DNA from: Candidatus Multivoradales bacterium
GTDB taxonomy: Bacteria; Acidobacteriota; Thermoanaerobaculia; Multivoradales; J023
Direction of reading: 5' to 3'
Length of the DNA: 64,000 nucleotides
Assembly: GCA_965248925.1 (NCBI GenBank)
Contig: CBDFLE010000005.1
Span: forward strand, 960,001 to 1,024,000
Part shown: positions 1 through 28,852 of the stretch, piece after piece
How positions within the stretch are numbered: the first letter of the stretch is position 1
How the letters are laid out: each line of letters begins with the position of its first letter
Notes under the pieces: model-generated
What the model saw: the letters and a program-made list of their open reading frames with translations, nothing else
The model's database searches: none
Told to the model about the DNA's origin: nothing
Position numbers and translations under genes: made by a program

Positions 1-205
1 GGAGGTCCGAGGAGGGGCCCAGGTGGCGCGCGGCTTGCGGAGCGGCTGGCCCGTGCCCGGAGGGAGCGCAGCGACCGGAGGGACACACGCCCCGGCGGAG
101 CGTGGGGCGAGCTTTCGGAGACTCTTTTCTTGGACTACCTGAAGCCTCGCTCCGGGCCGGTGATCGGAGGGCTCAGGTGGTGGATCGCAGATGCTCGGGC
201 GGGGG

Positions 206-1279
206 TCAGTCCTCCGCCTCGGTCTCGACTACATCGAGTAAGTCCTCGGCGGTCACTTCATCGCTGCCGTCTTCTTCTGTCGGCGGTGCCACCCGCCGCC
301 CTAGCTTCGCGCCCGGATGGGTTGCCGAGTGGATCGACTTCAGTTTGCGGATCGATACCTGAGTGTAAATCTGCGTCGTCTCCAGCTTGGCGTGGCCGAG
401 CATCTGCTGGATGAAGCGGATATCCGCACCACCTTCGAGCATCAGCGTCGCCATCGTGTGGCGGAAGAGATGGCAAGCGCCCGACTTGCCGAGATCGGCG
501 GCGAGCACGTAGCCGCGCACCAGCTGAGTCATTCGCGACGGCGCAAACGGCGTCCCCTGGTTGGTGAGAAAGAGCGGCCCGCCGTCCGGCTCGACCACCA
601 GCGACGGCCGTACCTCAGTGACGTAGCGATCGATCCAGGCCAGCGCCCGCTCGCCGATCGGGATCATCCAATCTTTCCTACCCTTGCCCTGGCGCACCAT
701 CACCGTCCCGCGTTCGATGTCGAGATCGTAACGGCCGAGGCCGATCAGCTCAGCCCGGCGCATGCCCGTGGAGTAGAAGACTTCAAGGATTGTTCGGTCG
801 CGCATCCCGAGCGGGTCGGCGGTGTCGGGCTGGTTGAGCACCTGGTCGGCTTCAGAGGCGGTCAGCACCGCCGCCGGCAGCCGGTGCTCCAGCTTCGGTA
901 GCTCCAGCTCCGAGGCCGGGTTGTAGAGCAGGTGGTTGGCCCGAGCCGCCCATTTGAAGAAGGCCCTTACCGGCACCAGCCGCGAGTGCTGAGCCCGGAA
1001 AGACAGCGGCCGCCCATCCTCGGGCTTGCGGTAGTGGTAGAGCCACCTGGCGTAGCGTTCCAAAATCGGCTTGGTCACGTCCGACGGCCGCGACACTCCA
1101 CGCTCGTCACACCATGCGATGAGAAACGAGAGGTATAGATGCCGGTTCTCAACGGTTCGTGGAGAGTAGTTCTTGATCGCCATCCACTCCAGGTACTGGC
1201 CGGCCATCACCGCGAAACCCCGAGGGTCGGTTGGATTGCCCGGCAAGAGGCGGATCTTGCGCTCGCCACGGCGCGGCAT
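206..1279 (-). CDS. Tyrosine recombinase (XerC/D-like integrase)
   Basis: Motifs GMRRAEL, GKGRK, HLFRH, LGHAKLETTQIY; SAM-like N-terminus (NYSPRTVENR); start overlaps primase stop (TGATG). Confidence 0.95.
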   Translation of the reverse strand: MPRRGERKIRLLPGNPTDPRGFAVMAGQYLEWMAIKNYSPRTVENRHLYLSFLIAWCDERGVSRPSDVTKPILERYARWLYHYRKPEDGRPLSFRAQHSRLVPVRAFFKWAARANHLLYNPASELELPKLEHRLPAAVLTASEADQVLNQPDTADPLGMRDRTILEVFYSTGMRRAELIGLGRYDLDIERGTVMVRQGKGRKDWMIPIGERALAWIDRYVTEVRPSLVVEPDGGPLFLTNQGTPFAPSRMTQLVRGYVLAADLGKSGACHLFRHTMATLMLEGGADIRFIQQMLGHAKLETTQIYTQVSIRKLKSIHSATHPGAKLGRRVAPPTEEDGSDEVTAEDLLDVVETEAED

Positions 1280-26700: not shown

Positions 26701-28852
26701 AGGTAAAGCTGGTGCCCAGGCCCGCTGCGTCGCGGCTGGTGGCCACCAGGCCGGTGTCTGAGTCGATGTCGTAGTCGGCCAGGGTGAGGATCGCGGTGCC
26801 GGTGCAGTCCACCGCCGTCGACTTGCGCAGGCTGCCACTGGCGTAGACGTGGTCGGTGCGGTAGGTCGGGCCGGACAAGCTGAGGCTGCACAAGGAGCCG
26901 GTGCCGAGGTTCTGGGTGTCGCCGCCATAGACCCGCTGGCGGGTGACGAAGCCGTTGCTCGAGGTGAGGAGGCTCACCACGTCGCGGCTCTGGCGATTGC
27001 TACCGGCCAGCTGGCGGCGGCGTTCGAGGAAGCCGGTGGTGCTGCTGAAGCAGAACTCAGCCTTCTCGGTGGTCCCGCCTTCGCTCACCGACTGCTCGTC
27101 CCAGGTCTCCAAGATCCAGCGTGCGTTGTGGCTTGGCAGCACGAAATCGGTTGCCGGATCGATCGAGCTGTCGTCGGGGTTGGCGATGATGTAGGTGCCG
27201 CTGTTGGCGTTGTAGGTGGTGCTGCTGGTGCGCACGTCGGCGGCGCCGAAGCTGCCGCCGGTGGTCATGGTGCGGAAGTGGCCCAGGCCATCGAAGTCCG
27301 AGAAGGTGACTTCGCGGAACTTGCCGCCGTCGTCGTGGAAGGTCTCCTTGCGATAGCGCAAGCGGTGAGCTTTCTCGTTGTAGTTGCCGGCGTCGCGGCC
27401 ATCGCTGTCGAACTCAAGGAAGATCGAGCGGAGCTTGGTTCCGCCAGCGTTGAAGAGTTCTTGGGAGAGAAAGGGGCCGGCTTCTGAGAAGCTGCCGCTG
27501 ATGGGATCGCAGTAGGTGTAGGGCAGGCCGTAGGACCAGCGATTGTTGGCGCCAACGGTGGAGAAATAGCTCACCGTCTCGAAGCCCAAGGGATCAGTCA
27601 CTTTCATCGAGTGGAAGCAGGGGTGGCCCAGCGGATCGCCGGGGGCTTGCGGATTTGCGGTGTCGTAGCTGTAGTTCCAGGTGGCGTAGGGGGTGGTGTC
27701 GCCGTCGTCGAGGAAGAGATGCTTGCTTTTGACTCCCCGCGCCACCGTGCCCCAGTCAGGAGCGTGGAAGAGGTCGGCCAGCTGGGTTTGGAAGGGGAAG
27801 AGCTGGTAGTCGTAGCCGTAGGCGCCGCCGGTGGGCAGGCGTAGCTTTGACAAGCCGCCCGAGAGCAGGTTGTCGACGGTCAGGTAGTCCATCTCGTAGA
27901 ACGAACCGTCGGGCAACACCACCCGGTCGAGCACCTGGGTGGTGAGGGTGTGCTCGGCTATCGGCACGCAGCCGGGACGGAAGCCGAACTGCCGTTCGAG
28001 GGTCTCGGTGCGGTACTGAAAGAGGAAGGTCGAGTTGCTTTGGCTGCCGAAGGCTTCGAGCCTCACCGTAGCGACTCTGCCACCGACAAAATCCACCGTG
28101 TGAGTGCGCCCTTGGCTGTCGGTCAATGTCCAGTCGCCATCGTTGGCATAGCGCACATTGATCCAATTGCCGAAGCGATCCTCCATCCGCGTCAGGCGCC
28201 AGAGATCGCCGACGGAGGCGTAGTTATGGAACTCGTGCAGCTCGCCGCCAGAAAATTCTACCGTGTAGCAGCTCTGATCGACAAAGGTGCCAGACGGCAG
28301 CTCGCACACCCCCGGATTGCGCTTGCGTAGACGCAAATAGGTACTGTCGTTGGTGAACCAGGTGCTGGGCTGCGGTGTCGCTGGAAAACCGCCGGGATGC
28401 AGCTCGGTATAAAACCTGTGCTCGCCGCCACTTGGATCGACGTAAATCTCGGGCGTTGTAGTTGGACTGTTACGTGGCGCGATCAGCTCTCCGAGGCTGA
28501 CTCTCCAGCCGAAGCCGGCCTGCGTCTTGAGATCCTGGATCGGCAGGCTGTAGGTACGCAGCGCGAAGGGTGGATTGATGTCTTGACATTGGTGATTCTC
28601 ATCGTACTCCCAGCCACCGGAGCTGTACGAGGCGGTCAGGCTGAAGCTGAGGGATGGGCCGACGGGGTAGGTGATGCCGATCGGCAGAGATACGGTCAGG
28701 CTGCCGTTGAAGAGATTGATCTGATCCAGGTCGCCGATTTGGTAGGCGGTGTCGGCGGTCACTCCGCGCTGGTGGCTCGGGGGGAGTTGCGCGGTTAGCG
28801 GCAGGGCGATGCAGAGGCCGAGAAGGATGAAAGTGAGAGGTCTAATTCGCAT
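23795..28852 (-). CDS. Full-length RHS/YD-repeat polymorphic toxin with Sec-type signal peptide
   Basis: MRIRPLTFILLGLCIALPLTA signal; YD repeats (FTYDRLGRL, YDGLGRR, YDAAGNL); HLDHLGTPR...PINEIDPNG core; unique tip. Confidence 0.95.
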   Translation of the reverse strand: MRIRPLTFILLGLCIALPLTAQLPPSHQRGVTADTAYQIGDLDQINLFNGSLTVSLPIGITYPVGPSLSFSLTASYSSGGWEYDENHQCQDINPPFALRTYSLPIQDLKTQAGFGWRVSLGELIAPRNSPTTTPEIYVDPSGGEHRFYTELHPGGFPATPQPSTWFTNDSTYLRLRKRNPGVCELPSGTFVDQSCYTVEFSGGELHEFHNYASVGDLWRLTRMEDRFGNWINVRYANDGDWTLTDSQGRTHTVDFVGGRVATVRLEAFGSQSNSTFLFQYRTETLERQFGFRPGCVPIAEHTLTTQVLDRVVLPDGSFYEMDYLTVDNLLSGGLSKLRLPTGGAYGYDYQLFPFQTQLADLFHAPDWGTVARGVKSKHLFLDDGDTTPYATWNYSYDTANPQAPGDPLGHPCFHSMKVTDPLGFETVSYFSTVGANNRWSYGLPYTYCDPISGSFSEAGPFLSQELFNAGGTKLRSIFLEFDSDGRDAGNYNEKAHRLRYRKETFHDDGGKFREVTFSDFDGLGHFRTMTTGGSFGAADVRTSSTTYNANSGTYIIANPDDSSIDPATDFVLPSHNARWILETWDEQSVSEGGTTEKAEFCFSSTTGFLERRRQLAGSNRQSRDVVSLLTSSNGFVTRQRVYGGDTQNLGTGSLCSLSLSGPTYRTDHVYASGSLRKSTAVDCTGTAILTLADYDIDSDTGLVATSRDAAGLGTSFTYDRLGRLTGQRPAELGWTQWTYTLPTTANPGLAPKLTEQQCQPFQTSCSGTDLMSFREHRYDGLGRRLQETVRIPIANAGQTELWHRYTTWNPRHWKTDESVWTTASAAGESRRTTYLAYDRFGRPGRVKPPEQPATFFTYQGDRVQIRRFKVQLTSGQQDTYVTEIMDGQGRLAEVCEGSSAAWSGSCGGGGLLTRYSYDDGGRLTKVCQNLAGSTCGQTRLFSYDGRGFLLSETHPEIGPSGNGRIDYRFDAGGNAISKDLIGSTAFDLSFDFDAAGRLIRVLESSNGVGSTPRLQKQFRYARTNSGSDHRAGKLVQTVRHNWVDIQNPLAPEPGSLDVKLSESFRYTGRQGLMSEKQTRYQFFAGNYAFTTGFAFDTQGNLSQLDYPSCQHADGGCATNDPQRTVNFNYEKGMLRSVPGFANNLTYQSGGMLHQLAHSDGVVDSQEVSSLNGLARPHQLTTSAGWSSGNFAYDGAGNISAIGNLAYRYDRLGRLISGQTSVGATLFTQTASFDNFGNIQQLSTPGFAALNLNPSATTNRLGLSGAQYDAAGNLTDITLGSESFDYAFDGANMMKHLRSNTDQARVFIYNASDERILTFDCFGPGATSTCTTQPASLTWTLRGLGNEVLRVYDQPAGGAFSWSRDYVHRGGQPLATIEPEGSGGEMTSHLHLDHLGTPRQITRGGQQVALHNYFPFGQEATSAEADEIQLKFTGHERDKTGTGARSELDYMHARHCSPVVGRFLSVDPAKSAKPSAPGSWNRYSYAGNNPINEIDPNGRESRAAMALEQDIQRLMRGEITQEQYIENINARGMGALFAASLLSPVDETTLVVAVTRKALPSVGSKLSAVFARLGKVFQRGSRGGAKGAASVDDLLRAGQQLDRNGLSRAGRSLQKHGDRADSVFPRSTGNAAARNDQGQQILEEILNSSNQTTRANRLGGRDIFDTASGRGVRFDGDGQFIGFLDP

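Follow-up and report, generated by a model that had tools for sequence, protein, structure and literature searches.

Tandem units behind a full-length rhs gene

The DNA analysed here is a window of 64,000 nucleotides from a Candidatus Multivoradales bacterium (contig C5, positions 960001–1024000; genome 7.98 Mb, 62.5% GC), in which a full-length rhs toxin gene is followed by a tandem array of units. Each unit couples a further rhs 3′ end and its putative immunity gene to a regulator, two SymE-like open reading frames (ORFs), a primase/ATPase and a tyrosine recombinase, and is probably a copy of an integrative, plasmid-like mobile element that carries a replacement 3′ end for the rhs toxin gene. 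An earlier note on this DNA had described head-to-tail units behind the full-length gene, and self-BLAST together with a repeat search bore out this arrangement: three units lie on the minus strand behind a 1685-aa rhs ORF. The earlier count of three for the array as a whole did not hold, as the array continues leftward past the window edge to seven units (U1 to U7) and 62.7 kb in total. The following features define the array in the window, and all coordinates without a contig name are window positions.

1..6664, minus strand: unit A (U5), cut by the window edge; its tip, immunity gene and XRE regulator differ from those of unit B
6665..14206, minus strand: unit B (U6), 7,542 bp
14207..24654, minus strand: unit C (U7), the head unit; unit B sequence plus a 2,901-bp IS21 insertion in the primase gene
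17238..20138, minus strand: IS21-family insertion, splitting the unit C primase gene; target duplication GTCGC at 17233–17237 and 20139–20143
18350..19924 and 17592..18590, minus strand: istA (rve and Mu-transpos_C_2) and istB (IstB_IS21, 3.5e-76) of the insertion, by Pfam
23795..28852, minus strand: full-length rhs, 1685 aa; RHS_repeat, and TIGR03696 at aa 1412–1497

Positions 9691–14206 and 20139–24654 align at 100% identity, 6463–9695 and 14005–17237 at 99.4%, and the backbones of units A and B (195–4854 and 7788–12450) at 97.8%. Because these are kilobase-scale repeats at 97–100%, a chance origin is excluded. With the insertion removed, units B and C show 0 mismatches over 7,542 bp. The insertion was assigned to IS21 by its pair of istA (DDE transposase) and istB (ATPase) genes and by the 5-bp target duplication. 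The spacer and leader of unit A lie ~820 bp to the left of the window.

From codon 1401 onward the full-length rhs gene is supplied by unit C, in agreement with the earlier proposal that the head unit provides the tip now on the full toxin. Units B and C being identical, the tip of the full-length gene recurs in the first orphan, and two tip types, not three, are present in the window. The N-terminus of the full-length product looks like a signal peptide when read by eye. No VgrG or PAAR genes were found near rhs among the ORFs scanned, so the export route of the product may not be type VI. A small ORF with a Big_9 (bacterial Ig) domain precedes the rhs gene (28865–29293).

Gene content of a unit

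Along the minus strand, unit B reads core-end block, tip, immunity gene, XRE regulator, two SymE-like ORFs, primase, recombinase, spacer and leader. The earlier note had listed the same gene set from RHS end to recombinase, and Pfam and NCBIfam searches identified it, with one of the two SymE-like ORFs below cutoff and the immunity genes assigned by position.

13347..14450, minus strand: orphan ORF of unit B, 367 aa, composed of an 81-aa element leader (14207..14450) and rhs residues 1401–1685
5847..6908, minus strand: counterpart orphan ORF of unit A, leader plus rhs end
13096..13350, minus strand: putative immunity gene of unit B, 84 aa, assigned by position only; identical copy at 23544..23798
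5608..5850, minus strand: putative immunity gene of unit A, 80 aa, unrelated to that of unit B
12653..13030, plus strand: XRE regulator (HTH_3), divergent to the operon and part of the variable module
5000..5398 (37% identical) and 23101..23478: XRE copies (HTH_3)
12151..12522 and 11934..12197, minus strand: two overlapping SymE-like (AbrB-fold) ORFs at the start of the primase–recombinase operon
4338..4851 and 22382..22970: copies of the SymE-like ORF pair, by Pfam
8872..12078, minus strand: primase/ATPase, 1068 aa; residues 50–395 are DnaG-type (zf-CHC2, DNAG_N, Toprim)
1279..4482, and 16414..17229 with 20100..22526 (split by IS21), minus strand: primase copies
7799..8872, minus strand: Xer-type tyrosine recombinase, 357 aa; copies at 206..1279 and 15341..16414

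The core-end block of ~290 bp encodes rhs residues 1401–1498, corresponding to the Rhs-associated core TIGR03696, and is followed by a variable C-terminus of ~185 aa. Against an NCBIfam cutoff of 32.5 bits, the TIGR03696 score was 60.2 bits for the full gene and, for the two orphans, 64.4 and 58.1 bits; the RHS repeat PF05593 was matched at 1.9e-16. Together with core-end sequence bearing the DPxG motif (...NNPINEIDPNGRE), these matches identify an Rhs/YD locus with orphan modules. Each putative toxin tip is followed by a small ORF. One tip matches Ntox10/EndoU just below or near the cutoff, and the putative immunity ORFs have no family match in Pfam or NCBIfam.

The SymE_toxin model scored 46.4 bits in one of the paired ORFs (cutoff 29) and 25.6 bits in the other, which is below the cutoff; both may act as AbrB-fold regulators. 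A search of positions 1–30000 with Rfam at gathering thresholds returned no match, SymR-type RNA included. No LexA-type box (CTGT-N8-ACAG) occurs in units B or C, which leaves SOS control unsupported; one match, at 5244, is no more than chance would give.

In the primase, the C-terminal half contains a P-loop-like AAGKS motif, and its resemblance to the plasmid-primase domain PF27228 is an Atlas lead only. The recombinase matches Phage_integrase (PF00589, 3.7e-36) and the XerC subfamily model NF002331 (427.7 bits, cutoff 371). Residues R160, K199, H270, R273, H296 and Y305, which we take to be the tyrosine-recombinase catalytic R-K-H-R-H-Y set, are invariant across 9 aligned relatives. With these catalytic-domain residues and its membership of the family by hidden Markov model (HMM), the protein is of Xer type and is predicted to be catalytically active.

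A 28-bp dif-like site at the unit junctions

The earlier note had placed the unit boundary within the rhs reading frame at GGGTGA. This motif indeed ends at 6664, and the same junction, ...GGGCTGTCCCCTTC/ACCCGAGG... (...ccccttc/ACCCGAGG; the slash marks the border), was found at 12 of 12 unit borders genome-wide. At the same point the full-length genes read ...CGGCAGATC/ACCCGAGG.... Around the border lies a core of ~28 bp with inverted arms in an 11-6-11 layout, composed of the arm GCTGTCCCCTT, a central CACCCG and the arm AGG(G/C/T)GG(T/A)CAGC; GCTGTCCCCTT-CACCCG-AGGNGGNCAGC is present at all 12 junctions. The sites in the window, and those recognised at a diverged locus on contig C4 and in related genomes (G016, G052 and G009), are as follows, with the complementarity of the arms.

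24637..24664, minus strand: attL-type site; rhs-derived left arm CCCGGCAGAT, central CACCCG, right arm AGGGGGTCAGC; homology with the unit junctions begins here
14189..14216, minus strand: attP-type site; GCTGTCCCCTT-CACCCG-AGGGGGTCAGC, 9/11
6647..6674, minus strand: attP-type site; GCTGTCCCCTT-CACCCG-AGGTGGACAGC, 9/11
Second C4 locus: GCTATCCCCTT-TCGCCG-AGGGGGGCACC, 7/11
G016, junction of units 4 and 3: GCTGTTCCCCT-GTCCCA-AGGGGAACAGC, 11/11
G052: GCTATCCCCTT-GTCCCA-AGGGGGGTAGG, 8/11
G009: GCTGTTCCCCT-GTCCCA-AGGTGGACAGT, 8/11 by hand count

Arm complementarity is 8–9/11 in the main family, set against a background in which 11 of 28,972 28-mers in window positions 1–29000 score at least 9/11. 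In the other lineages the site stands at the end of a homologous spacer. Wherever the full-length side was available, which was the case in three lineages, identity between attL and the unit junctions starts at the border between left arm and central region.

Three unrelated targets are occupied: rhs at codon 1401, a giant RHS gene at a point ~760 codons short of the core-end, and, in G016, a sequence within a toxin domain. The attL and attR sequences share the core of the target, and empty paralogs possess this core natively; these are paralogs in the same genome, as distinct from orthologous sites of sister strains. The central region and right arm are present as TCGCCGAGGGGGGCACC in 4 of 4 empty paralogs of the giant RHS gene, and in 1 of 4 full-length rhs paralogs, where the empty copy at C6:1743530 has CACCCGAGGCGGACAGC. 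A 9-mer common to the rhs and giant RHS targets, CCGAGGGGG, falls in a different frame in each and is therefore not a by-product of homologous coding. We read this junction pattern as the footprint of Xer-type site-specific integration. The earlier suggestion of entry at a site-specific att thus gained both a defined 28-bp site and native half-sites in the targets.

A universal att in the YMHARYY/GRF motif was considered and rejected, since the junctions of relatives lie within the toxin domain or at distances before DPxG that range from ~180 to ~30 aa. No second core-like site, as in an integron, was found between the immunity gene and the XRE gene.

Control region, spacer and leader

Non-coding features of the unit were mapped at either end of the primase–recombinase operon.

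12534..12623: back-to-back promoter-like sites in the XRE/SymE intergenic region
7430..7451, minus strand: hairpin HP1, CCGATA...TATCCG, in the spacer; copy at 14972..14993
7366..7391, minus strand: hairpin HP2, ACATAA...TTATGT, in the spacer; copy at 14908..14933
6888..6959, minus strand: conserved inverted repeat CTCCTTTAGCCGC-N45-GCAGCTAAAGGA, overlapping the leader start codon

In the 7.7 kb scanned, promoter-like sites were found only in the XRE/SymE gap of 130 bp, two in all, and the gap looks like a repressor/operator switch. Downstream of the recombinase gene follows a structured spacer of ~1.1 kb, the final 243 bp of which form the 81-codon leader. The leader frame continues into the following rhs fragment, so that each orphan is a complete ORF, and a public gene catalogue contains 9 leader-fused orphan proteins called from this genome; a word-based leader search returned nothing beyond these 9. 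A signal-peptide-like start of the leader was seen in three lineages.

HP1 and HP2 show compensatory changes between lineages and are kept downstream of the recombinase even in relatives at 47–56% recombinase identity; they belong to no Rfam family. No other DNA of the element is conserved as widely as these hairpins, and most of the DNA matches, which were found in 18 of 300 genomes of the order, fall here. In the 600 bp before the site only 2 positions vary among 12 copies, while the recombinase gene varies. The hairpins, the inverted repeat and this invariant stretch suggest a candidate origin and/or accessory sequences, and HP1 and HP2 in particular may act as an origin, as an accessory site or as an RNA.

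An ORF called in the spacer ('orf195', 6892..7479) matches no family, is rich in Pro, Arg and Ala, and shows indels or frame changes in diverged copies; it is probably spurious. The spacers of U3 and U4, to the left of the window, contain extra insertions of ~1.6 kb and 2.9 kb, one of them directly after HP2. In three relatives (G047, G060 and the C8 locus of G011) the spacer between recombinase and toxin has type II toxin-antitoxin pairs that are RelB/ParE-, HicA/HicB- and VapBC-like by sequence; the same position in the present genome is occupied by non-coding structured DNA.

Copies and tip diversity across the genome

Recombinase–primase pairs were found in 14 copies at 6 loci, all of them within RHS-family genes of three different families. 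Seven form the 62.7-kb array behind the window rhs gene, 3 lie behind an rhs on contig C6 at 3.49 Mb, and single units stand behind rhs genes at C6:1.34 Mb and C4:79–83 kb. The other two, at C6:3.62 Mb and C4:254–260 kb (the second C4 locus), are diverged, with 81–92% recombinase identity. Every array starts at a full-length gene and ends with a final orphan preceded by the leader. Identical neighbours occur in the C5 array (U7 and U6, U4 and U3, U2 and U1), and the C5 and C6 arrays have identical head units.

The four main-family loci hold 17 modules, with 12 distinct toxin domains between them. The variable region is itself modular, being built of the core-end block, one of several pre-toxin linkers, the toxin with its immunity gene, and the XRE module. 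These modules reassort independently at gene borders, and the limits are the XRE stop codon and the SymE start codon. Tip and immunity DNA has a GC content of 55.6% (13096–14004) versus 65.1% for the backbone (6665–12522). The recombinase ORF is open in 14 of 14 copies and the primase ORF in 13 of 14. Compared with the diverged copies, dN/dS is 0.10–0.18 for the recombinase and 0.14–0.22 for the primase; both genes are under purifying selection.

A custom HMM counted 85 RHS core-ends in this genome, an exceptionally heavy load, including those of ORFs of ~3,600 and ~5,000 aa on C4 and C5. An element-free array of the classical type, with 7 orphans that start at varied positions, is located at C6:2.44–2.46 Mb.

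Relatives in other genomes and on plasmids

The recombinase was detected at E ≤ 1e-60 in 10 of 60 related genomes, with tandem arrays in G016, G047, G060 and G011. In the regions fetched, 9 of 20 recombinase copies have an RHS core-end within ~3.5 kb downstream; four of the same 20 are G016 units fused inside a toxin domain, and for the others either none was found or the contig ends. A pattern scan of 185,579 species genomes recovered XRE–primase–recombinase synteny at 40–62% recombinase identity in Acidobacteriota, Actinomycetota, Planctomycetota, Gemmatimonadota, Eisenbacteria, Cloacimonadota and other phyla.

The earlier note had proposed scoring integrase and primase homologues for adjacent RHS ends, and this search came out in its favour. 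Of 26 syntenic primase–recombinase pairs in metagenome-assembled genomes, 21 could be scored, their sequence continuing downstream for 1.5 kb or more. In 15 of these 21 (16 if the motif is also allowed) a same-strand RHS core-end followed within 3.5 kb, compared with 1 of 45 control loci from the same scan with Xer-like recombinases and no primase, a contrast to be read with the caveat that the core-end HMM was trained partly on loci it then scored. This synteny across phyla, Pseudomonadota among them, suggests a general mechanism.

In PLSDB, 209 records match the primase. One of these, plasmid unnamed1 of Lonsdalea populi N-5-1 (NZ_CP072857.1), is deposited as a complete, circular record of 11,289 bp. 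It encodes RelE/DinJ, XerC, primase, HTH and SymE proteins, an NTF2-fold immunity protein and an endonuclease tip, and it comprises one complete unit and a second, truncated unit with an HNH tip; both nuclease tips are preceded by ...NYGYVHNP..W.DPFGL. The record may represent a true plasmid or a circularised array. On a Janthinobacterium plasmid a large toxin gene is followed by HTH, primase and XerC genes, and then by orphan and immunity genes. A family-wide DNA search added no further close lineage.

Phage collections were also searched. In IMG/VR the best match over the full recombinase did not exceed 39% identity, and one 47-aa fragment matched at 79%; 50,697 phage records contained no full-length primase match. 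In PHROGs, matches were obtained for the primase, integrase and regulator, and beyond these only for one family of unknown function. There are no capsid, packaging or helper-interference genes in the 7.5 kb of a unit, as a phage satellite would have. Nor does the unit resemble an integron, as each copy has its own recombinase, regulator and promoters, and integron-integrase models scored 100.9 against a cutoff of 265.

Site-specific entry, homologous recombination and other explanations

A number of observations weigh against reading the units as elements that integrate at the 28-bp site. The central CACCCG is present in 3 of 4 occupied versus 1 of 4 empty paralogs, a weak difference. The junction of the divergent element at C6:3.62 Mb misfits the site, no equivalent site was recognised in G047, G060 or Lonsdalea (recombinase ~50% identical), and the position of the junction in the RHS core-end varies widely among lineages. 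The leader ORF evolves without protein-level constraint (dN/dS ~0.95) and has a stop codon at the second C4 locus; whether it is a selected protein is uncertain. The partial overlap between training and scored loci mentioned above belongs here as well. Finally, no circle, empty site or variation in copy number was observed in Logan contigs (4 runs of one sample), data that are uninformative on these points, being short, collapsed contigs whose depths are not readable as copy number. A long contig in this set joins 17232 to 20139 and thus represents an uninterrupted primase gene; it is not informative on unit C, because other element copies give the same contig.

Further observations on the same side concern homology. 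Between the heads of the C5 and C6 arrays, identity is 100% over the entire unit and over a further 651 bp upstream of the site, and the rhs cores above this tract differ by ~3%. The tract is attributable to homologous recombination, because a circle entering at the site could not bring those 651 bp. The single unit at C6:1.34 Mb combines an attL of chromosomal type at positions +2, +5, +8 and +17, with a central CACGCG, and an attR of the element type, a mismatch that implies a crossover within the block. The C6:3.62 Mb locus is flanked by direct repeats of 3.1 kb and the second C4 locus by repeats of 2.4 kb. The core-end blocks (200 bp) are mosaics of paralog variants. For the identity of the C5 and C6 heads and for the attL at C6:1.34 Mb, homologous recombination is a better explanation than exchange at the site, and homologous recombination also shuffles the arrays. 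Entry through core homology, which the earlier note had offered beside a site-specific att, thus found its own support in the mosaic blocks and the 651-bp tract.

Xer recombinases resolve ColE1 multimers at cer, and the unit could be a plasmid that integrates by RecA homology only, its Xer-type enzyme merely resolving multimers at the 28-bp site. The mosaic blocks, the tract starting 651 bp upstream, the attL polymorphisms of the single C6 unit, which fit a crossover inside the block, and the 2.4-kb and 3.1-kb repeats at two loci would all be accommodated. So would the differing length of the carried rhs fragment among lineages, the plasmid-like presence of toxin-antitoxin genes in relatives' spacers, and the resemblance of the primase to plasmid replicases (the Atlas lead). 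Such a plasmid leaves unexplained why the central region and right arm are matched natively in three unrelated targets and in different frames, and why homology breaks constantly at the border between arm and central region. Some lineages, moreover, share less than 100 bp of diverged homology with the target, which makes a poor RecA substrate. We consider homology-only integration unlikely.

Identical adjacent pairs (U7 and U6, U4 and U3, U2 and U1), insertion sequences within units and the lack of circles in the short Logan contigs would also be expected of a decayed or domesticated island that had been amplified by segmental duplication, with recombinase and primase as relics, or of an assembly artefact. 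Against relics stand the intact ORFs (14 of 14 and 13 of 14) with their dN/dS of 0.10–0.22, the presence of one identical unit at the head of two arrays on different contigs, the conservation of the family across phyla, usually by RHS ends, and the relative deposited as a circular plasmid. Collapsed or expanded assembly is opposed by the insertion sequences and tips that distinguish the units. This explanation is very improbable in our estimate. A backbone of integrase, primase and repressor is typical of phage satellites, and the PHROGs matches for these three proteins would suit a P4- or PICI-like satellite (PICI, phage-inducible chromosomal island), or a defence island, that merely lies near rhs genes with the toxins as unrelated neighbours. 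The absence of capsid, packaging and helper-interference genes from the 7.5 kb, the best IMG/VR identity of 39% over the full recombinase, the lack of a full-length primase among the 50,697 phage records, and an rhs fragment fused in frame at the element's own recombination site make that scarcely credible.

The interpretation of the unit as an integrative, plasmid-like element thus rests on its att-like ends and 28-bp site, on purifying selection, on relatives located by RHS ends and on the circular record. To this extent the earlier proposal of one integrative, primase-encoding element per tip is supported; catalysis by the recombinase, excision, circle formation, replication and the consequences for expression are inferred.

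Other genes in the window

Two further features lie outside the array. An 806-aa ORF at 30886–33306 contains 5 or 6 fascin/FRG1-like beta-trefoil repeats (DUF7910), which are detectable in the DNA too (repeat family D10), and adjoins a family-2 glycosyltransferase gene. At 39012–43759 there are two neighbouring Hsp70-like ORFs, one of them with DUF3731 ('DNA-K related protein').

Proposed cycle of the element

In its circular form the element would comprise, in order, the 28-bp site, ~290 bp of core-end, toxin, immunity gene, XRE gene with divergent promoters, two SymE-like ORFs, primase/ATPase, recombinase and spacer. The XRE protein would repress the operon. Upon derepression, the recombinase would join the head site and an internal site, or two internal sites, and units would leave as circles, to be replicated by the primase/ATPase; excision of the head unit in this manner would re-arm the rhs gene with the next tip. 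A circle would enter a look-alike sequence in the coding region of an RHS-family gene by exchange at the border between left arm and 6-bp central region. Entry would fuse the resident 5′ 1,400 codons in frame to the core-end and toxin of the element, and the old tip and its immunity gene would be displaced downstream, behind the element. Repeated entry or re-entry would build a tandem array in which the head unit arms the expressed toxin while older tips and all immunity genes are retained. RecA-type exchange through the blocks and backbones would duplicate units, move them between paralogous loci and reassort modules.

Whether such elements amount to widespread, autonomous 'warhead cassettes', that is, small Xer-bearing replicons with att in a toxin coding sequence that switch tips in frame, is a proposition to which we give about even chances.

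Relation to known systems

The Xer/dif core measures 28 bp in an 11-6-11 layout, Xer recombinases have no arm-binding domain, and integrons stack cassettes at one expression site. With Xer/dif, cer, IMEX (integrative mobile elements exploiting Xer) and integrons the unit thus shares the layout of the site, an enzyme of the Xer family that lacks an arm-binding domain and stacking at one expression site. Unlike in Xer/dif, cer and IMEX, the site here is inside a protein-coding frame; unlike IMEX, the unit has its own Xer-type enzyme; and unlike integron cassettes, it is without attC-type ends.

In islands that insert at the 3′ ends of genes, such as tRNA and tmRNA genes, trmE (SGI1) and dusA, attP supplies a copy of the target's 3′ part and thereby keeps the gene intact, and tandem arrays are possible. 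Like the unit, they have a tyrosine recombinase gene beside att (PMC8409611, in its accessible part). They preserve the gene, whereas here the restored end is different, comprising a new toxin domain and the matching immunity gene, so that integration would change the function of the gene rather than preserve it. The target also differs, being a multi-copy, fast-evolving toxin family here and a housekeeping gene in the islands. The targets of Tycheposons are tRNA genes of marine cyanobacteria, and their cargo is metabolic. In common with the unit, they are small, combine a tyrosine recombinase, a primase/replicase and cargo, and form tandem stacks (compare Hackl et al., bioRxiv 10.1101/2020.12.28.424599). 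Unlike in Tycheposons, the target here is a polymorphic-toxin coding sequence, and the cargo is fused to it in frame.

With regard to rhs loci themselves, C-terminal displacement is said to have been reported by Jackson in 2009. Orphan rhs-CT/rhsI modules were studied by Koskiniemi et al. in 2014, as described in the accessible part of a later preprint (bioRxiv 10.64898/2026.07.13.738213). According to that description, a full-length rhs is followed, as here, by core-end fragments with alternative toxins and immunity genes, and an orphan can replace the expressed tip through the shared core-end. Classical orphans are passive DNA, whereas a recombinase–primase–repressor element stands here between successive orphans. 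The orphans here start at one fixed nucleotide in a dif-like site, in contrast to the varied positions in the element-free array at C6:2.44 Mb.

Recombinases have been linked to immunity-gene stockpiles before. In Bacteroidales, rAID are recombinase-associated arrays of orphan immunity genes (bioRxiv 10.1101/2025.05.03.651265), and XerC/D genes lie beside polyimmunity loci (Zhang et al. 2012, PMC3482391). As far as the accessible parts of these two sources describe them, such loci share with the present array an Xer-like or tyrosine recombinase linked to a toxin-immunity stockpile; their arrays each have a single recombinase, store immunity genes alone and lack a primase, whereas here each cassette has its own recombinase and replicase and carries the toxin as well as the immunity gene. 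Integrase-like genes recur by Rhs loci in the bee-gut bacteria Snodgrassella and Gilliamella, where capture of Rhs sequences was suggested (Steele et al. 2017, PMC5727410); the accessible text of that study describes no element structure, att site, primase or array logic. In the literature outside subscription papers and supplements, no element with a primase and an Xer enzyme and with att in a toxin reading frame was found.

Implications

The acquisition of tips, and the pile-up of old tips and immunity genes, have hitherto mostly been credited to passive homologous recombination with DNA of unknown origin. The present locus offers a testable vehicle for tip exchange, a putatively self-replicating and self-integrating element with a defined 28-bp site in the toxin gene. 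If active, the element would account for the horizontal spread of toxin-immunity pairs, for 'C-terminal displacement' and for rapid switching of weapon specificity, and it would represent a new logic of cargo and target for integrative elements. The array would then serve as a magazine for spare tips and would archive immunity genes permanently, and with plasmid-like replication tips could spread among strains, and even phyla, apart from the large toxin genes. By means of its element copies, the cell appears able both to change and to stockpile its weapons.

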